Source: a virus
UHGV virus genome: UHGV-0119765
Reading direction: 5' to 3' (one strand)
Length of the DNA stretch: 26,581 bases
The notes beneath the pieces were generated by a model that saw nothing but the letters and a program-made list of their open reading frames with translations, did no database searches and was not told where the DNA came from. Both the position numbers and the translations under genes were made by a program. Below, one piece after another: positions 6,168 to 26,328 of this stretch. Positions within the stretch are counted from its first letter, which is position 1. Every line of letters starts with the position of its first letter.

Positions 6168-6350
6168 AGGATGCTCCTTCTGTTTGATTGCATAACGAAA
6201 ACGCCTCGAGTGAAGCGTTATTGGTATGCATATAAAAAGGCCCCCACATCGGAGGGCAAAGAAGATTTCCAATAATCAGAACAAGTCGGCTCCTGTTTAG
6301 TTACGAGCGACATTGCTCACATAGCAGACTCGTAAATCTGCTATAGGCGC

Positions 6351-6509
6351 TTATTCGCATCGCATGACAACATCAAATTTTTCGAGATTACTTTGTCGCA
6401 ACAATCCTTCTTCTACTCGGTCAGCTTTTCTATAATTATCAAATTCGAAATGTTTAATTACTTCTTTTGTTTCTCGCTCTATAACTTCAACGATGTATCT
6501 CTTATTCAT
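6351..6509 (-). CDS. Hypothetical small protein (52 aa)
   Basis: Not in the ORF track. ATG at 6509 overlaps the upstream stop (TAATG) and follows AGGTGA; MNKRYIVEVIERETKEVIKHFEFDNYRKADRVEEGLLRQSNLEKFDVVMRCE. AT-rich. Confidence 0.45.
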   Translation of the reverse strand: MNKRYIVEVIERETKEVIKHFEFDNYRKADRVEEGLLRQSNLEKFDVVMRCE

Positions 6510-6778
6510 TACTCATCACCTAGGGCTTTTTTGATAGCTTCGCGAGCCTTATTAACAGCTCCATACCATTCTGGATATGTTGTCGTTGTTCTATTTTCGG
6601 CTTGCTTAAGTAATAACTGAAGTGCTTCAAGTAAATCCGGTGCAGCCATAGCCAACCTTCCATTTGCTACGGCCTCTTCTGTTTCTTTACCGGATAGGGC
6701 CATTCCCGGGTGTGAAAATAAAATTAAGCCTGCAAAATTGGCTTCTCGCCAATTTTTCCTAGTACCTTTAAATTCCAT
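6509..6778 (-). CDS. Hypothetical protein (89 aa)
   Basis: ATG at 6778 preceded by GAGG. The track ORF's GTG at 6814 sits immediately after the upstream stop with no RBS, so the ATG is preferred. Confidence 0.5.
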   Translation of the reverse strand: MEFKGTRKNWREANFAGLILFSHPGMALSGKETEEAVANGRLAMAAPDLLEALQLLLKQAENRTTTTYPEWYGAVNKAREAIKKALGDE

Positions 6779-6816
6779 GTTAGCCTCTGTTGTTATGCCA
6801 AAAATAAAGGCCACCG

Positions 6817-7017
6817 TCAGGCAGCCTTGTTATTCTGTTTACCAAGTTCTCTGGCAATCATTGCCGTAGTTCGTATTGCCCATTTATCGACATACTTCCC
6901 ATCCTCCATTACAGGAAGCATTTCTTCAGGCTTAACCATGCATTCCGATTGCAGTTTGCATCCATTGCATCGCTTGAATTGTCCACACCATTGATTTTTA
7001 TCAATAGTCGTAGTCAT
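6817..7017 (-). CDS. Hypothetical small Cys-rich protein (66 aa)
   Basis: ATG at 7017 with AGGA upstream. Four cysteines in a C-x5-C-x2-C-x5-C arrangement (CGQFKRCNGCKLQSEC) suggest a small zinc-binding protein. Confidence 0.55.
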   Translation of the reverse strand: MTTTIDKNQWCGQFKRCNGCKLQSECMVKPEEMLPVMEDGKYVDKWAIRTTAMIARELGKQNNKAA

Positions 7018-7095
7018 AAGGATAGTCCTGGTATTGCTCCATCACATCCTGCGGATGCTCTTCGAACTCTTCAAATTCTTCTTCCATATCTCACC

Positions 7096-7422
7096 TCAAA
7101 TAAGTGGTTTGCTGCCTAATTTCATTTTCTGGCGACCAACACAAGTCACACCCATTTCACTGCGTGGCTTGCTGTACCATGTGCGCTGATTCTTGCGCTC
7201 AATACGTTGCAGGTTGCTTTCAATCTGTTCGTGGTATTCAGCCAGCACCGTAAGGTCTATCGGATTCAGTGCGCTTTCTACTCGTGATTTCGGTTTGCGA
7301 TTCAGCGAGAGAATAGGGCGGTTAACTGGTTTTGCGCTTACCCCAACCAACAGGGGATTTGCTGCTTTCCATTGAGCCTGTTTCTCTGCGCGACGTTCGC
7401 GGCGGCGTGTTTGTGCATCCAT
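7096..7422 (-). CDS. N: Antitermination protein N (lambda type)
   Basis: 108-aa ORF beginning MDAQTRRRERRAEKQAQWKAANPLLVG, the arginine-rich boxB-binding motif of lambda N. Near-identical to lambda N over most of its length as I remember it. Confidence 0.95.
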   Translation of the reverse strand: MDAQTRRRERRAEKQAQWKAANPLLVGVSAKPVNRPILSLNRKPKSRVESALNPIDLTVLAEYHEQIESNLQRIERKNQRTWYSKPRSEMGVTCVGRQKMKLGSKPLI

Positions 7423-7620
7423 CTGGATTCTCCTGTCAGTTAGCTTTGGTGATTGGATGGCCGGCGCTGAACCCCGGCTTACTGGTTAGAGCGCCCGCAC
7501 TACCAGTGACGCTGTCTTGAGGCGCAGATTGGTTACTGCTTGCCATGAGCGCTGTTTATACATTGGTCGAGCATCAGCCTGCTCATTCATCCAATCCCAA
7601 AGCCTTCTGCTTTGAATGCT

Positions 7621-7651
7621 GCCCTTCTTCAGGGCTAAATTTTTAAGAGCC
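7621..7651 (-). promoter_or_regulatory. nutL site (boxA-like plus boxB hairpin)
   Basis: Reverse complement reads GCTCTTAAAAATTTAGCCCTGAAGAAGGGCA: a boxA-like element and the canonical lambda nutL boxB stem-loop GCCCTGAAGAAGGGC. Lies about 35 nt downstream of the proposed pL start and 200 nt upstream of N. Confidence 0.8.
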
Positions 7652-7690: not shown

Positions 7691-7720
7691 AATAGTACGA
7701 TTTGTACTTTATCGAGTCAA
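7691..7720 (-). promoter_or_regulatory. pL-like early-left promoter with overlapping operator palindrome
   Basis: On the minus strand: -35 TTGACT, 17-nt spacer, -10 TACTAT. An AGTAC-N5-GTACT palindrome overlaps the spacer and -10, as expected for an OL operator. Confidence 0.6.
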
Positions 7721-7783
7721 TACAAAATGTTCTAAATATAATTAGTTTTTTATAACGCTTTGTATTTAATGGGTTTATATTTT

Positions 7784-7813
7784 GGAAAAAGAAAACCCGG
7801 CGCTGAGGCCGGG
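7784..7813 (-). terminator. Rho-independent terminator ending the cI / membrane-protein transcript
   Basis: Stem CCCGGC / GCCGGG with a 6-nt loop, followed on the minus strand by UUUUCUUUUUCC. Positioned between the 7836 stop and pL, like lambda's terminator after rexB. Confidence 0.7.
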
Positions 7814-7835
7814 CTTTTAGGGCGGGTTGATGCTC

Positions 7836-8873
7836 TTAACACCCTTTAATGGGAGTTGAGATACGAGATATCATTGCTGATTCAATTATCCCACTTCTGA
7901 CTTTATAGTCACCAAAAAGAGAAATTGAATCAGAAAGTTTCATGCTTTCATAAAGAAGGTCTGTTTCGTCTTTATCTATAAAATCAGTAACAACATAAGC
8001 AGGGAAGGTATAATCAGTGCCAACCTTTTTGCAAGTTACTGTCAGCTTTCCATCTGATTTTTTAATGCCTTCAATTTCAACTTCTTCTGTAAGTTCTTTG
8101 TTGGAAAGTTTCTCACGTGGGTTTCTTATCATTTCGGCAATATCACGCTTATCTAATTCGATCTTTGCCATACCATTAAACTCTACTCTGTCAGCATCTG
8201 AGACGCCTTTCAACACCCCAACCACAGCATTTGAAGTATGGGATTGAATTCCCTCTGAAATCTCCCTCGCAGCTGCTGTGGCAGTATGAGCAGAAAGAAC
8301 TTCAACCATGCCATCTTTAAGCAGTCTCATTTGCTCAGTTTGGCTGTTGGTGTCGTTGAGGCCTTCATCAATCTCAAGTTGCTTCATTTTTTCTATATGG
8401 CGATCTTTTTGTCTCGACTTTATCAGCCAAGCCCCAGTAAGGATCAGCGATATGAGAACGAGACATATAGCTTTCTCTGTTCCAGTCATACCTTGTGTTG
8501 ACCTCTCAAATGCAACACCAAATGAATCAATTACATCCTTTATAGCAACAAGTAGGTCAGTACAGCCAGGCTCAACTTTAAAAATTATCTCAAGCTCTTT
8601 TCTATCACTGTCTTTCAAATGCTTGAGATTATCCGTTCCTCGCCTTACAAGCATAAACGCTTTATAAAGTTCGGTCTGAAACTCGCACATACCTTGAGCT
8701 AAAGAGGACGGTATCGTCCCATTATACCGGTCTGGATCACCATAAATCTTGAAACTTACGTGGTTAACAAAATCAATTTTAATGTCATTGATAGATATTT
8801 GCTGACCTTTCTGAACTCTTTCTAAAAACTCTGAAACGTCGCTTAATGATGAGATATCAATTTGATTGTCCAT
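7836..8873 (-). CDS. Unknown single-pass membrane protein at the rexAB-equivalent position (moron; candidate exclusion/defence gene)
   Basis: Long uninterrupted ORF (345 aa from the ATG at 8873; 355 aa from the alternative TTG at 8903, which overlaps the cI stop). Same strand and immediately downstream of cI. One central hydrophobic helix (KAICLVLISLILTGAWLIKS) flanked by two soluble halves. AT-richer than flanking lambda-like DNA (about 35% GC in a 60-nt sample). No family recognised. Confidence 0.8.
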   Translation of the reverse strand: MDNQIDISSLSDVSEFLERVQKGQQISINDIKIDFVNHVSFKIYGDPDRYNGTIPSSLAQGMCEFQTELYKAFMLVRRGTDNLKHLKDSDRKELEIIFKVEPGCTDLLVAIKDVIDSFGVAFERSTQGMTGTEKAICLVLISLILTGAWLIKSRQKDRHIEKMKQLEIDEGLNDTNSQTEQMRLLKDGMVEVLSAHTATAAAREISEGIQSHTSNAVVGVLKGVSDADRVEFNGMAKIELDKRDIAEMIRNPREKLSNKELTEEVEIEGIKKSDGKLTVTCKKVGTDYTFPAYVVTDFIDKDETDLLYESMKLSDSISLFGDYKVRSGIIESAMISRISTPIKGC

Positions 8874-8895
8874 ATCTTTTCTCAATGTTATTGTG

Positions 8896-9555
8896 TTAAC
8901 CAAACGTCTCTTCTGGCCACTGGCTGGCGATAACTTTCCCTACAACGGAACAGCTATCATTGCATGGGATCATTGGATATTGCGGGTTTAGTGGTTGTAG
9001 GAACACCTGACCGCTATCCCTGATCAGTTTCTTGAAGGTAAACTCGTCACCACCAAGTCTGGCTATGCAGAAATCACCTGGCTCAACAGCCTGCTCAGGG
9101 TCAACGAGAATTAACATCCCGTCAGGAAAGCTTGGCTTGGATCCTGTTGGTGCGGTCATGGAATTACCTTCAACTTCAAGCCAGAACGCACAATCACTAG
9201 CTTTTTTGGTTGTGCTGACCCATCTCTCCGCATCACCTTTGGTAAAGGTTCTAAGCTCAGGCGAGAACATCCCGGCCTGAACATGAGAAAAAACAGGGTA
9301 CTCATGTTGTTTTTTAACGGGGGCAGATGAGTATTCGCCAACAGGTGAAAATGTACCGTCGTGGTTGAATGAGACGTTATCAATACCAAGGTATTTAAAC
9401 ACCACACCAATCTCGTCAAGAGATGGATGACGAGATCCGCGCAACCAGTGACCAATTCCACCCTGCGTCATACCAAGCTCTTCAGCTAACTTCTCTTGAG
9501 TTATGCCGAGCTCTTTCATTCTGGATCTAGCCAGTTCATACCATTTCATTTTCAT
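8896..9555 (-). CDS. cI: CI-type prophage repressor (LexA/S24 peptidase fold)
   Basis: ATG at 9555 ([37 protein letters not shown]...). The C-terminal ~130 aa ([20 protein letters not shown]...[12 protein letters not shown]) match the lambda cI C-terminal domain; the N-terminal HTH domain is different. No SD upstream, consistent with a leaderless PRM transcript. The track ORF extends 54 codons further 5' without support. Confidence 0.9.
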
Positions 9556-9665
9556 ACCATTATTATTACGCTCTGTACTAAAACCATCCATGCACAAGAT
9601 GTATTTTTGTTTGCATTCTAAAAGTACATATCGTATTATTGTTTCATGGTTACTATGGAGGGCAT
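9556..9665. promoter_or_regulatory. OR region: divergent PR (cro) and PRM (cI) promoters with operator sites
   Basis: PR on the plus strand: -35 TTGCAT (9611-9616), 17-nt spacer, -10 TATTAT (9634-9639), GGAGG RBS before cro. GTAC-containing partial palindromes resemble the OL palindrome. PRM placement is tentative. Confidence 0.65.
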
Positions 9666-19941: not shown

Positions 19942-19976
19942 TGCTCAACCTGAAATAACAACTAAGTGAGATGAAT

Positions 19977-20465
19977 ATGGCAGCACCAAAGGGCAACCGA
20001 TTTTGGGAGGCCCGCAGTAGTCATGGGCGAAACCCTAAATTCGAATCGCCTGAGGCGCTGTGGGCTGCTTGTTGTGAATACTTCGAGTGGGCTGATGATA
20101 ACCCGCTATGGGAGGGTAAGGTATTTTCATATCAGGGAGAAATAATTAAGGCTAATGTCCCTAAGATGCGAGCCATGACTATTTCAGGATTGTGTACCTT
20201 CCTTGATATCACCAGGCAAACATGGGGGACCTTCCGGTCAATGGAAGGTTTTTCTGACGTCACATCACGAGCGGAAGACATCATCTACGACCAGAAATTC
20301 TCTGGCGCAGCCGCTGACCTTCTCAACGCTAACATCATCGCCCGTGATTTGGGCCTCAAAGAGCAGTCGCAAGTTGAAGACGTGACACCTGATAAGGGAG
20401 ATCGCGATAAGCGACGCTCTCGTATCAAGGAGCTATTCAACCGTGGAACTGGACGCGATTCTTGA
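19977..20465 (+). CDS. Terminase small subunit (P22 gp3-like)
   Basis: 162 aa from the ATG at 19977 (GTGAG 6 nt upstream); [46 protein letters not shown] matches P22 gene 3 as I remember it. The track ORF starts two codons earlier. Confidence 0.9.
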
Positions 20466-21942
20466 TAACCTGAGCGACGAAGAGCAAATCGAATTGCTCG
20501 AGCTACTCGAAGAAGAAGAGAACTACCGTAACACACACCTGCTATATGAATTTACGCCATACAGCAAACAGCGTGAGTTCATCGACGCCGGGCATGACTA
20601 TCCAGAGCGATGTTTTATGGCTGGTAACCAGCTTGGTAAGTCATTTACTGGTGCTGCTGAAGTCGCGTTTCACCTTACAGGGCGTTATCCGGGCACAAAA
20701 GGCTATCCTGCTGATGGTAAATATGGCGGTGAGTGGAAAGGTAAGCGTTTCTATGAGCCTGTTGTCTTCTGGATTGGCGGCGAGACAAACGAGACGGTAA
20801 CCAAAACGACTCAACGCATCCTGTGCGGTCGTATTGAAGAGAATGATGAACCGGGCTACGGTTCAATACCGAAAGAGGACATCATTAGCTGGAAGAAGTC
20901 TCCTTTCTTTCCGAACCTTGTTGATCATCTTCTGGTTAAGCATCACACGGCTGATGGCGTTGAAGATGGCATTTCAATCTGCTACTTCAAGCCATACTCG
21001 CAAGGCCGTGCTCGCTGGCAGGGTGACACAATCCACGGCGTGTGGTTTGACGAAGAGCCACCATACAGCATTTATGGCGAAGGTCTTACCCGTACCAACA
21101 AATACGGGCAATTCTCAATTCTGACGTTTACCCCGCTGATGGGGATGTCTGACGTTGTTACCAAGTTCCTGAAGAATCCAAGCAAGTCGCAGAAAGTGGT
21201 CAACATGACCATCTATGACGCTGAGCACTACACCGACGAGCAGAAAGAGCAAATCATCGCATCCTATCCTGAGCATGAGAGAGAGGCGCGTGCTCGCGGT
21301 ATTCCTACGATGGGTAGCGGGCGAATCTTCCAGATACCGGAAGAGACGATTAAGTGTCAGCCGTTTGAGTGCCCTGATCACTTCTACGTAATTGGCGGGA
21401 TGGATTTCGGATGGGATCACCCGCAGGCGCAGGTTCAGCTTTGGTGGGATAAGGACGCAGACACAATCTACGTTTCACGCGTGTGGAAGGCGAAAGAAAA
21501 GACAGCCGTTCAGGCGTGGGGAGCTGTTAAATCATGGGCGCATAAAGTGCCAACCGCATGGCCTCATGACGGAAACCAGCATGAGAAGGGCGGTGGTGAG
21601 CAGCTCAAAGGGCAGTATGCAGACGCTGGATTTATGATGTTGCAGGAGCATGCGACATGGCCTGATGGCGGTAATGCTGTTGAGCCTGGCATCACTGAAT
21701 TGCGAGACATGATGCTCGATGGTCGCTTCAAAGTATTCAACACCTGTGAGCCATTCTTTGAGGAGTTCCGCCTCTATCACCGTGATGAAAACGGGAAGAT
21801 CGTCAAGCTTAACGACGACGTTCTCTCAGCCGTTCGCTATGCATACATGATGCGCCGCTTCGCCAAAATGATGCGCGACATCAAAAAACCAAAAGAGAAA
21901 AAGATACCAGCCCCAATCAGGCCCATCGCACGGAGAACTTAA
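20443..21942 (+). CDS. Terminase large subunit (P22 gp2-like)
   Basis: 499 aa from a GTG at 20443 that overlaps the small-subunit 3' end. Close match to P22 gp2 along its length. Confidence 0.95.
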
Positions 21943-24108
21943 ATGGCCGACGAAAACAGACTCAATTCCATTCTGTGTAAGTTTGACGCAGACTGGATGG
22001 CGAGCGATGAAGCCAGAACCGAGGCGACAAATGACCTGTTTTTTAGCCGAGTGTCGCAATGGGATGACTGGCTATCAAACTACACCACCCTGCAATATCG
22101 CGGACAATTCGATGTTGTTCGCCCAGTGGTCAGGAAACTGGTCGCAGAGATGCGCCGGAACCCTATCGACGTTCTCTTCCGACCCAAAGACGGCGCTAAT
22201 CCTGATGCAGCCGATGTGTTGATGGGGATGTATCGTACTGATATGCGCCATAACACGGCAAAGATTGCCGTTAACGTTGGCGTTCGTGAGCAGATAGAGT
22301 CCGGCGTTGGTGCATGGCGTCTGGTCACACAGTACGAAGACAACGACCCAACAAGCAACAATCAGGTAATCAGACGCCTGCCAATCCATGAGGCCTGCTC
22401 ACACGTCATATGGGACGCCAACAGCAAGCAGATGGATAAGAGCGACGCTAAGCACTGCACGGTGATTAACGCCTTGTCACGCAATGGCTGGAAAGAGTTC
22501 GCAGAGGATTACGGTATTGATCCGGACACCTTGCCATCTTTCCAGAATCCGAACGACACATGGCTGTTTCCGTGGGTATCGAATGATGTCGTCTACGTCG
22601 CTGAGTATTACGAGATAGAAGAGAAGAAAGAGAAGGTCTTCATCTACCGCGACCCGCTGACAGGTGAGCCGGTCAGCTATTACCAGCAGGATATTAAAGA
22701 CGTCATCGACGACCTGGCTAATCGTGGATTCATTAAGGTAGCAGAGCGCAAGGTGAAGCGTCGGCGTGTGTATAAGTCGATCATCACCTGCACACAGATA
22801 CTGAAAGACCGCGAGAAGATAGCAGGAGAGCATATTCCAATCGTTCCAGTGTATGGCGAATGGTCATTCGCTGGTGACAAGGAGTGCTACGAAGGAGTGG
22901 TAAGGCTGACGAAAGACGGTCAACGCCTTCGTAACATGATCATGTCATTCAACGCCGATATTGTTGGTCGTTCACCGAAGAAGAAACCGACCTTCTTCCC
23001 TGAGCAAATCGAAGGCTACGAATACATGTACGGTGGAAATGATGACTATCCGTACTATCTCCAGAACAGGACTGATGAAAACGGTAACGACCTGCCGATT
23101 GGTCCAATCTCCTACATGGAAAACCCTGAAGTGCCGCAAGCCAACGCTTACATGCTTGAGGCTGCCACCAACGCAGTGAAAGAGGTGGCTAGTCTTGGCG
23201 TGGATGCACAGGCAGCAAACTCTCAGGTCTCTTTCGATACCGTCAATCAACTGAACATGCGGTCAGACCTTGAGACATACGTGTTTCAGGATAACCTGGC
23301 TACCGCAATGCGGCGTGATGGCGAGATTTATGCCTCAATGGTCAATGATATTTATGACATCCCTCGTCATGTAACGCTGACACTTGAAGATGGAAGCGAG
23401 AAAGACGTTCAACTCTACGCGCAAGTTGTCGATTACCAGTCCGGTAATGTGGTCACACTCAACGACATTCGCGGTCGCTACGAGTGCTATATAGGAGTTG
23501 GACCATCCTTCCAGAGCATGAAGGAACAGAACCGCGCAGAGATTCAGGAGTTGCTAACAAAGGTTCCGCAAGGTACTCCAGAGTTCCAGATGCTGATGCT
23601 GCAATACTTCACGCTGCTTGACGGTAAAGGCGTCGAGATGATGCGAGAGTACGCGAACAAGCAACTGGTGATGATGGGGCTGAAGAAACCAGAAACACCT
23701 GAAGAGATGGAGATGGTACAACAGGCGCAACAGCAGCCGCAGCAGCCATCAGCAGAGCAAATTCAGGCGCAGGGTATCCTTCTGCAAGGTCAGGCTGAAT
23801 TGCTCAAGGCAGAGAACCAACAGGCGCAGATTCAGGTTGAAGCCGCCAAGGTTGAAGCCCAAAACCAACTCAACGCCGCGAAGATTGCGGAAATCTTCAA
23901 CAATATGGACCTCGACAAGCAGGCAGAACTGCGTGAGTACCTCAAGATCGTAGGTCAATTCCAGCAACAGCGCAGCAAAGATGCTCGTGCTAACGCTGAG
24001 CTGCTTCTTAAAGATGCAGACCAGACTCATTCACAACGCATGGATTTCGCGAATCTTATGCGTCAAGTTCAAATCCCCTCCGGCGGAGTAGCCGAGACAC
24101 CTCAATAA
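21943..24108 (+). CDS. Portal protein (P22 gp1-like)
   Basis: 721 aa, GGAG RBS; high similarity to the P22 portal across the core, with a Gln-rich C-terminal barrel region. Confidence 0.95.
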
Positions 24109-24121
24109 GAGAGAGTTAACC

Positions 24122-25033
24122 ATGGACCAAACCACCGACATTCAGGCTTCTGAAGAATTAACCCTGCCCGGCAATCATGCAGCGGCATCTGCTGATGGCT
24201 TAGTTGTCGATAATGCCAACGACAACGCAGGTCAGGAAGAAGGCTTCGAGATTGTCCTGAAAGACGATGAGAAACCAAAACAAGACCCGGCAACTAATGC
24301 TGAATTTGCCCGTCGCCGCATTGAACGCAAACGCCAGCGTGAGCTTGAGCAGCAGATGGAAGCGGTTAAGCGTGGAGAGTTGCCGGAGCACCTGCGGGTG
24401 AACCCTGAGTTACCAAAACAACCAGACCCTAACGATTATCTTTCCGAAGATGCACTGGCTAAGTACGACTATGACCAGAGCCGCGCACTGGCTGCCTTCC
24501 AGCAGGCAAACAGTGAATGGCAGATCAAGGCTATGGACGCACGAAGCCAGGCTGTCGCCGAGCAGGGTCGCAAAACTCAGGAGTTCACCCAGCAATCAGC
24601 GCAATACGTCGAGGCAGCCCGTAAGCACTACGACGCAGCGGAAAAGCTCAATATCCCTGACTATCAGGAGAAAGAGGATGCATTCATGCAACTGGTGCCG
24701 CCAGCAGTCGGTGCCGACATCATGCGCCTCTTCCCGGAGAAATCCGCCGCTCTCATGTATCACCTTGGTGCTAATCCTGAGAAAACACGCCAGTTGCTGG
24801 CGATGGACGGGCAATCCGCGCTGATTGAGCTCACTCGACTGTCAGAACGTTTAACTCTCAAGCCTCGAGCCAAGCCTGTTTCAGAAGCCCCGTTACCTGA
24901 TGAACCCATTCAGGGACACGCTGTTGCTGCAAATATTTCTGCGATTGAAAAGCAGATGGAAGCGGCAGCAAACAAAGGGGATGTAGAGGCGTACCGCAAG
25001 CTCAAGGCGCAACTGAATAAAGGAATTCGATAA
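24122..25033 (+). CDS. Scaffolding protein (P22 gp8-like)
   Basis: 303 aa, the same length as P22 gp8 and closely similar along its length. Confidence 0.9.
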
Positions 25034-26328
25034 TGGCATTAAATGAAGGTCAACTGGTCACGTATGCTCTGGATGAAATCATCGAAACCGTCCAGAACCT
25101 GACGCCAATGGCGTCCAAAGTGACAAAATACACCCCTCCGGCAGAATCCATGCAGCGTTCAAGCAACACCGTGTGGATGCCTGTTGAGCAGGAAGCGCCA
25201 ACCCAGACTGGCTGGGATTTAACTGGCAACGCAACCGGGATTCTGGAACTCTCCGTGAAGTGCAACATGGGCGATCCGGATAACGATTTCTTCGAGCTTC
25301 GTGCAGATGACCTGCGTGATGAGCGTTCTTACCGTCGCCGCATCCAGGCATCCGCCAAAAAACTGGCGAATAACATTGAGTCAGCGATTGCCAAACAGGC
25401 AACTGAAATGGGCTCGCTTGTTGTTCACGATACCCGCGCAATTGGTCCATCTACTGGCCTGTCTGGATGGGATTTTGTGTCTGATGCAGAGCGACTGATG
25501 TTCTCCCGTGAGCTAAACCGCGATATGGGCATCAGTTACTTCCTGAATCCTGACGATTACCGCAAAGCAGGCCGCAACCTGGTAGATGGTGACATCTTCG
25601 GTCGCGTTCCTGAAGAAGCGTATCGCAACGGTACTATTCAGCGTCAGATTGCTGGCTTTGATGAAATTCTTCGCTCACCGAAACTTCCGGCAGTTACCAA
25701 GTCAACCGCTACTGGTGTAACTGTTTCTGGTGCGCAGAAGTTTAAGCCGCAGGCATACACTCTTGATACCGATGGTAACAAAGAGAACGTCGACAACCGT
25801 GTTGCAACGGTGACCGTATCCTCCACCACCGGATTTAAGCGCGGCGACAAAATCAGCTTCACTGGCGTGAAATTCCTGTCTCAGATGGCGAAGAATGTGC
25901 TGACTGATGACGCGACTTTCTCAATCACCCGTGTGATCGATGGTACTCACATCGAAATCACGCCGAAGCCGATTGCGCTGGATGACGCGTCACTGACAAA
26001 AGAAGAGAAGGCTTACGCTAACGTAAACACCTCTCTTGCTAATACCACTCCGGTAAACGTTCTGAACGTGGCAACAACCACCGCTAACGTGTTCTGGGCT
26101 GATGACTCAATCCGCCTGCTGTCTCAGCCGATTCCGGTAACCCATGAACTGTTTGCTGGCATGAAAACTTCTTCCTTCAGCATTCCAGGTATTGGTGTTA
26201 ACGGCATCTTCGCAACGCAGGGTGATATCAACACTCTGTCTGGTAAGTGCCGTATTGCTGTGTGGTATTCAGCATGTGCTGTACGACCAGAGGCAATTGG
26301 TGTTGGTCTGCCTAACCAGACTGCGTGA
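25033..26328 (+). CDS. Major capsid (coat) protein (P22 gp5-like)
   Basis: 431 aa; similar to P22 coat protein throughout (for example [30 protein letters not shown]). TAATG coupling with the scaffold gene. Confidence 0.95.

Follow-up and report, generated by a model that had tools for sequence, protein, structure and literature searches.

A single-gene cassette between cI and t_imm in virus genome UHGV-0119765 encodes a candidate phage-exclusion factor of an uncharacterised family

In a 26,581-nucleotide stretch of UHGV virus genome UHGV-0119765, analysed at its full length and referred to here as the window, the position that holds rexAB in phage lambda is occupied by one gene (7836..8873, (-)) encoding a 345-amino-acid (aa) protein of PHROG 6191. 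The gene constitutes a single-gene accessory cassette, or moron, that fits exactly into the gap from the cI repressor stop codon to the terminator t_imm, and by sequence comparison it belongs to a gene family without a characterised member, found here in a prophage slot well known for cargo and defence genes. Its layout indicates that it is very probably a cargo gene expressed in the lysogen, and we consider it a good candidate for a new phage-exclusion factor. The full reading, in which a lysogen-expressed moron acts by non-enzymatic superinfection exclusion at the cell envelope, is offered tentatively, and we give it somewhat less than an even chance.

The open reading frame (ORF) in the ORF list spans 7836-8903 on the minus strand and yields 355 aa from a TTG or 345 aa from an ATG at 8873; the 345-aa form is the version annotated in both GenBank (phage mEp332) and RefSeq. 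An earlier note on this DNA, made from the sequence alone, had described a gene in the rexAB slot on the same strand as cI, starting within or just after the cI stop. Both points hold: the ORF list, the PHROG match, identity with the mEp332 protein, substitution rates and alignment with an empty slot support a real gene at 7836-8873, whose ATG lies 22 nt past the cI stop and whose alternative TTG, read directly from the sequence, overlaps that stop. The ORF is also AT-richer than the flanking DNA, as had been claimed, with a G+C content of 38.5% (32% at third codon positions) against 46.8% in cI, 49.8% in N and 48.1% in the entire window. Pairwise ratios of nonsynonymous to synonymous substitution rates (dN/dS) were 0.04-0.08 in each of four protein segments, in a crude test with synonymous sites near saturation, indicating that all parts of the protein are under purifying selection. 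Because these low ratios extend to every domain and the family has hundreds of members, a chance ORF can be ruled out.

The flanks of the gene reproduce the regulatory frame of lambda. Upstream lies the cI-type prophage repressor gene (8896..9591, (-)), recognised by Pfam HTH_3 and Peptidase_S24 as encoding a helix-turn-helix and an S24 self-cleaving domain; its product is identical to a RefSeq 231-aa LexA family protein, and its TAA stop occupies 8896-8898. The 22-nt spacer between this stop and the cargo ATG (8874..8895, (-)) was found by direct reading to carry only a weak purine-rich ribosome-binding stretch, GAGAAAAG, and a promoter and terminator scan found no promoter-like or terminator-like site in it. 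Downstream, a terminator scan and the alignment with lambda identified an intrinsic terminator equivalent to t_imm (7783..7817, (-)), in which a hairpin of 10 bp, 6 of them G-C, runs from 7817 to 7792 on the minus strand and is followed by a T-run; its core, CCCGGCCTCAGCGCCGGGTTTT, is identical to that of lambda t_imm downstream of rexB. The gene's own terminator before pL had been proposed at 7784-7813, and the hairpin was confirmed with its limits displaced by a few bases. Beyond it, the promoter scan found a pL-like early leftward promoter (7692..7720, (-); TTGACT with the -35 at 7720, a 17-nt spacing and TACTAT), in a position that agrees with the pL annotated in mEp332. The nutL boxB hairpin GCCCTGAAGAAGGGC (7621..7635, (-)) is identical to lambda nutL in the alignment, and the antiterminator gene N (7096..7422, (-); Pfam N36, E = 1.5e-26) closes the far side of the slot. 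Between nutL and the start of N, at 7430-7600, the window holds ~170 bp that are absent from lambda at this place, and a G+C-rich inverted repeat, GCCGGGGTTCAGCGCCGGC, lies within them near 7465-7485.

The gene thus shares with lambda rexAB its place, its strand and its regulatory surroundings, with the cI stop before it and t_imm, pL and N after it, and both the terminator hairpin and nutL are identical to lambda's; expression in the lysogen is presumed here. Because the spacer is 22 nt long, no promoter or terminator intervenes and t_imm closes the unit before pL, the gene would be transcribed together with cI in the lysogen. This layout points to transcription from the cI promoters with termination at t_imm, and a weak internal promoter inside cI is also possible. 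The repressor-n (cI-N) interval is a common moron site, examples being rexAB and bstA (PMC7067206, PMC8585504). Like the window gene, bstA of the Salmonella prophage BTP1 is single-gene cargo in this interval; its co-transcription with cI was demonstrated by RNA-seq (PMC7067206), and BstA is a defence protein in prophages of diverse Gram-negative bacteria (PMC8585504).

Comparison with related prophages defined the cassette by its presence and absence. The closest whole-prophage relative, in E. coli MS14385 (98.7% identical across 85% of the window), shares cI, pL, nutL and N but lacks the cargo gene, and its empty slot carries a variant terminator hairpin ~25 nt past the cI stop. When the two are aligned, the window stands out at this place by one clean extra block (~7829-8893, ~1.06 kb) lying exactly between the hairpin and the cI stop, and a scan detected no promoter or terminator inside the block. 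The gene therefore has the features of a moron: it lies on the same strand directly behind cI, is closed before pL, is dispensable with the same flanks elsewhere and differs from its surroundings in composition. The cassette was found at >=99.7% identity in 18 of 5426 complete E. coli genomes, and the cI allele type in 776 of them. Behind the same cI, 14EC017 has no cargo, as in MS14385, strain 109 has two small hypothetical ORFs, and SC477 has a 280-aa BRO family protein (L053 1574-2416), possibly a BstA-like defence gene in the same slot. Phage phi458 (OP434518; L050 838-1884), with essentially the same cI, encodes a 348-aa distant full-length member of the family, which matches the window protein with an hhalign probability of 100% (E = 9.5e-43) at ~17% identity. 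Two highly divergent alleles of one family thus share one slot, and the cI-to-t_imm interval is a cargo site of variable content.

The same pattern bears on the idea that the protein serves the prophage's own life cycle for instance as a membrane-located modulator of induction, of the timing of lysis or of the choice between lysis and lysogeny. RexA and RexB have themselves been proposed to act in the transition to lytic growth, and by its layout the gene rides the repressor transcript, so that its level would track that of cI. A second recurrent site of the family, described below, is linked to dinI, an SOS modulator, and the membrane helix and coiled coil of one relative weakly match a profile of Rz-like spanins. 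However, near-identical prophages lack the gene, and it occurs together with cI, N, replication and virion modules that are unrelated to one another, as is usual for dispensable cargo and not for a co-adapted regulator. We regard such a role as very improbable.

The family to which the protein belongs is large. The match to PHROG 6191 covers residues 1-344 (E = 6.3e-116) and is shared by all 77 aligned relatives; PHROG 6191 itself has no assigned function. A profile search of 1.84 billion representative sequences returned 755 proteins at E <= 1e-3, of which 326 also passed E <= 1e-10; almost all have 310-380 aa, and the count sets the family size at a minimum of 755 clusters at 50% identity; a word-indexed protein search had recovered only 11 clusters. 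The earlier statement that the protein could be assigned to no named family was upheld, since nothing in Pfam, NCBIfam, PADLOC or the PDB could name it and the function-less PHROG was its sole assignment. Pfam and PADLOC scans of the 77 relatives gave scattered weak single matches and none that was consistent, the PDB profile search returned noise from the membrane helix and the coiled coil, and a fold search of BFVD returned uncharacterised phage proteins only, among them a weak full-length match to Q6NE06 of Leptospira phage LE1, from outside the Enterobacterales. The defence assignment that had been envisaged was not borne out by defence-system profiles, which gave 0 matches at E <= 1 in PADLOC-DB v2.0.0, a release with post-2023 systems outside its coverage.

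Phage mEp332 encodes an identical protein, labelled 'conserved hypothetical protein' in one record (EF120456) and 'T2SS GspM containing protein' in another (PV340541). We found the second label unsupported, with no match to Pfam T2SSM at E <= 1. The general plan of a soluble domain, one membrane helix and a second soluble domain resembles that of GspL, and hhalign probabilities for E. coli GspM and GspL were 0.4% and 1.5%, with the hydrophobic helix alone aligned. Similarity between the window and mEp332 reaches the C-terminal half of cI and stops before the DNA-binding half; the DNA-binding half of the mEp332 repressor, whose gene likewise immediately precedes the cargo on the same strand, differs, and the cassette has therefore been exchanged between immunity types.

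Whether homologues recur downstream of cI in other prophages was a check proposed in the earlier note, and they do so in at least four genera, following cI alleles that are unrelated to each other. A cI-type repressor gene immediately precedes the relatives in PhiR12 phages (42% identity) and in Yersinia enterocolitica (76% identity), and in Morganella (39% identity) a DUF3024 gene stands between the two. Among 25 IMG/VR loci with sufficient upstream sequence to be evaluated, nearly all had a cI-type repressor directly upstream on the same strand, and relatives behind cI usually also lie upstream of N. The family also recurs at a second site, at the end of the prophage, where the gene is flanked by int or host DNA on one side and tail-fibre genes on the other and has dinI as a neighbour; examples come from Enterobacter, Xenorhabdus and Rahnella, and the 76%-identical Yersinia protein has one copy there. 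In the Yersinia, Rahnella and Enterobacter prophage ends the gene is accompanied by one or two dinI genes, which directly precede it on the same strand in L010, L042 and L043 and follow it by a few hundred bases in L037. In another prophage, a metagenomic member closes the early-right operon, and a single one of 72,556 plasmid records carries a family member. In Pasteurella phage Pmp14 a 25%-identical protein is encoded at the genome end, near a toxin-antitoxin pair.

Residence at the prophage end also suits a lysogenic conversion function unrelated to phages, in which an envelope protein alters host fitness, stress tolerance, surface or virulence in the manner of lambda lom and bor. Many relatives lie in the tail-fibre and att-end region by dinI, where lambdoid prophages keep conversion genes, and the family has a wide host range, in the Enterobacterales and beyond, that is not bound to one virion type. 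In uropathogenic E. coli, differential fluorescence induction sequencing (DFI-seq) placed UTI89_C5141 among promoters mildly induced in bladder cells (PMC5404293); the mEp332 record calls the UTI89_C5141 protein 'similar' to its own copy, and the DFI-seq signal is weak and indirect. Moreover, the characterised cI-N cargo cited here, rexAB and bstA, acts against phages (PMC7067206, PMC8585504), and the window protein lacks a signal peptide, a lipobox and an outer-membrane beta-barrel signature and shows no homology to a known virulence or stress family in Pfam or NCBIfam. Such a conversion function seems to us improbable.

The protein was modelled with AlphaFold2 on a 77-sequence alignment, with a mean predicted local distance difference test score (pLDDT) of 89 and a predicted template modelling score (pTM) of 0.85; this run superseded an earlier 8-sequence model with a pLDDT of 65. 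Residues 1-128 (8490..8873, (-)) form an N-terminal alpha/beta domain with pLDDT mostly of 85-95, whose elements follow one another as beta-alpha-beta-beta-alpha-beta-alpha (aa 1-125 in the model); the beta-alpha-beta-beta-alpha-beta part of this order may point to a ferredoxin-like fold. Conservation in the family is highest, and column entropy lowest, over residues 31-110, and the domain is acidic, with an isoelectric point (pI) of 4.8. Next comes a central hydrophobic helix, the presumed membrane anchor, placed at aa 134-152 (8418..8474, (-)) by Kyte-Doolittle hydropathy and the alignment, KAICLVLISLILTGAWLIK, and in the model a hydrophobic helix occupies 131-145 and is kinked at the conserved G147. 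A variable linker (aa 153-171), with low model confidence, the highest entropy and the most indels, leads to a helical hairpin (aa 172-195 and 200-223; 8205..8360, (-)) delimited by AlphaFold secondary structure and pLDDT, and two short modelled strands connect the hairpin to a C-terminal acidic beta-barrel (aa 257-339; 7857..8105, (-)). In the AlphaFold model this barrel is closed and five-stranded, with a helix between strands 3 and 4, as in an oligonucleotide/oligosaccharide-binding fold (OB-fold).

All soluble parts of the protein are acidic; the OB-fold has a pI of 4.6 here and a median pI of 5.25 across the family, values that speak against binding of nucleic acids. RexA-like sensing of nucleic acid by this domain is accordingly disfavoured. 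Positions conserved in at least 90% of members are G45, L86, G103, M129 and A227; the conserved residues being G, L, M and A, no catalytic constellation was found among them.

Sequence and architecture both set the protein apart from the known occupants of the slot. The earlier statement that it bears no resemblance to RexA or RexB was supported by BLASTP (E >= 1) and by hhalign probabilities of 0.8% and 0.2%, respectively. Lambda has two genes where the window has one, and RexB has four membrane helices whereas the window protein has one hydrophobic helix. RexA binds DNA according to Adams et al. 2024, as relayed in PMC12315714, in contrast to the acidic soluble domains described above. BstA acts in the cytoplasm at phage DNA replication sites, whereas the window protein combines a membrane-type helix with an OB-fold; no KilA-N/BRO-type domain was detected in it, with no Pfam family matching at E <= 1, although the BstA sequence itself was not compared directly.

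Hydropathy argues for a membrane location. The segment AICLVLISLILTGAWLI (residues 135-151) comprises 17 hydrophobic residues and gives a Kyte-Doolittle 19-residue maximum of 2.09, and no second comparable hydrophobic segment was found in the protein by this scale. A hydrophobic segment of variable sequence stands at the same position in all 77 aligned members. From its sequence, the product is a probable membrane protein.

Taken together, these features lead to the following reading of function. Like rexAB in lambda, the cassette would share the cI transcript in the lysogen, and the central hydrophobic helix would hold its product in the inner membrane. The conserved acidic N-domain, with its 130 residues and no signal peptide, would be expected to stay in the cytoplasm, with the helical hairpin and the acidic OB-fold facing the periplasm. 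There, the OB-fold may bind a protein of an incoming phage or a host component of entry, and genome delivery would be blocked in a SieA-like manner. We thus infer expression from the cI promoters, membrane insertion with this topology, an anti-phage function and the step that would be blocked. An anti-phage role is favoured because rexAB and bstA are known in the interval and the cassette is a single gene without a partner, and also because the family is restricted to prophages, moves between cargo sites and has very divergent alleles in one slot; we put its chance at about even. Exclusion specifically by blocking entry is more doubtful, and we hold it as a tentative proposal only. The functional idea of exclusion or abortive infection as such is reasonable but unproven.

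SieA of P22 offers a functional precedent for exclusion at the envelope. It too is the product of a single prophage-expressed gene, with a predicted inner-membrane location and no enzymatic motif, and it blocks the DNA-delivery conduit (PMC10883804). SieA, however, has 164 aa and is encoded in the immI region under its own promoter, whereas the window protein has 345 aa with two sizeable soluble domains. Kinship was rejected for P22 SieA and for the exclusion protein SieB of lambda and P22, with hhalign probabilities of 0.07% and 0.3%, respectively.

Several observations weigh against exclusion by a membrane-anchored protein. Classical Sie proteins are about half as large as the window protein. 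Its family occurs in prophages of differing virion types, with a P22-like head module here and GpJ-type tails elsewhere, and is therefore not tied to one entry route. No signal of an arms race or diversifying selection was detected in any domain at the level of the crude dN/dS test, the protein is unmatched in Pfam, NCBIfam and PADLOC, and neither a functional study nor a phenotype of any family member came up in the literature searched for mEp332, phi458, locus tags and accessions. The membrane placement is itself qualified. Hydropathy exceeds the 1.6 threshold in 54 of the 77 members, so that ~30% fall below it, and a rough insertion-energy sum comes out close to zero for the window protein and positive for the majority of members. 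Lysine plus arginine in the two helix flanks averages 2.39 versus 2.51 across 138 members, a charge bias that fixes no topology. The pTM of 0.85 implies that the two halves are confidently placed together, as would be expected of a compact protein within one compartment more than of two domains on either side of a bilayer. Of the earlier description of a single-pass protein with two soluble halves, the one bilayer-length helix therefore stands by hydropathy, and the arrangement across the membrane is put in doubt by the absence of a positive-inside bias and by the compact model.

The same compactness would suit the main rival reading, a protein that performs the work of RexA and RexB in one polypeptide, by abortive infection: a soluble part (the N-domain, the OB-fold or both) would sense a phage product, the protein would oligomerise through its hydrophobic helix, the inner membrane would be permeabilised or depolarised, and the cell would die or arrest before phage release. 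The gene occupies the exact rexAB position; its single hydrophobic helix, kinked at a conserved glycine, stands amid several long helices, and the high pTM together with modest hydrophobicity in many relatives fits a helix that is shielded until triggered. There is no conserved enzymatic motif, and a single protein joining a sensor to a membrane effector has precedent in phage defence, for example Cam1 (PMC10808066). Yet neither sequence nor profile relates the protein to RexA or RexB, the acidic OB-fold makes DNA sensing of the RexA type unlikely, a single short helix per chain offers little from which to build a pore, and no toxicity or self-immunity partner gene is evident in the adjoining sequence. 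On balance we consider abortive infection of this kind unlikely.

A more speculative combination, to which we give very little weight, is that the protein represents a new class of single-polypeptide prophage immunity protein, sensor and membrane effector at once, in which a helix shielded within the compact fold would be released into the inner membrane upon infection, so halting it, and a start at M129 might supply a modulating isoform made of the helix and the OB-fold. P22 Esc is the product of an internal start in sieB and protects P22 from SieB, and a comparable internal start at M129 is conceivable here but unsupported. The M129 codon lies at 8487-8489, and this methionine, five residues ahead of the hydrophobic helix, is 97% conserved although the mean identity of the family is 22%. 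Gene callers place the start of several homologues exactly at the conserved methionine, giving 214-215-aa forms. One such record, P0227 of the 214-aa group, was rejected as a natural short form: the full-length frame is intact in its contig, and the short version is an artefact of gene calling. P0005 and P0043 also start there, on contigs that are short or unchecked. A Shine-Dalgarno-like signal precedes the conserved methionine in about half of the homologues and is only weakly, and not convincingly, enriched, at a median background percentile of 0.17.

Elsewhere in the window, the early region is lambda-like (N, cI, cro, cII, nutL), contrasting with the late region at 19971-26328, which encodes the small terminase subunit, a large terminase of 499 aa, a portal protein of 721 aa, a scaffold protein of 303 aa and a coat-sized protein of 431 aa; in a near-identical prophage, RefSeq annotates portal and scaffolding proteins. 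Related prophages carry tRNA-Asn and tRNA-Thr genes after Q, and ARAGORN found no tRNA in the window. A second mosaic region occupies the early-left operon between cIII/kil and N (window 6290-7100 versus L047 6290-8546 in MS14385). In MS14385 it holds genes for a 322-aa protein labelled TolA-like and a DUF2528 protein, with small ORFs, and in the window it holds short ORFs such as 6351-6509, 6509-6814 and 6817-7017.

In summary, the interval downstream of cI yielded rexAB, among the first exclusion systems found, and later BstA, and in this genome it holds a member of a large unstudied family that has neither a Pfam entry nor a solved structure and moves between two classic prophage cargo sites in many Enterobacterales and beyond. 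Absent an anti-phage effect, the gene would stay ordinary uncharacterised prophage cargo, of which there are many such candidates. The question is easy to test, since the identical protein is available in a laboratory phage, mEp332, and there are natural prophages that differ by the cassette alone. If the protein does exclude phages, the family would constitute a widespread single-gene defence of unusual build, with a conserved N-domain, one membrane-type helix and an acidic OB-fold, and would help to account for the phage resistance conferred by common prophages.

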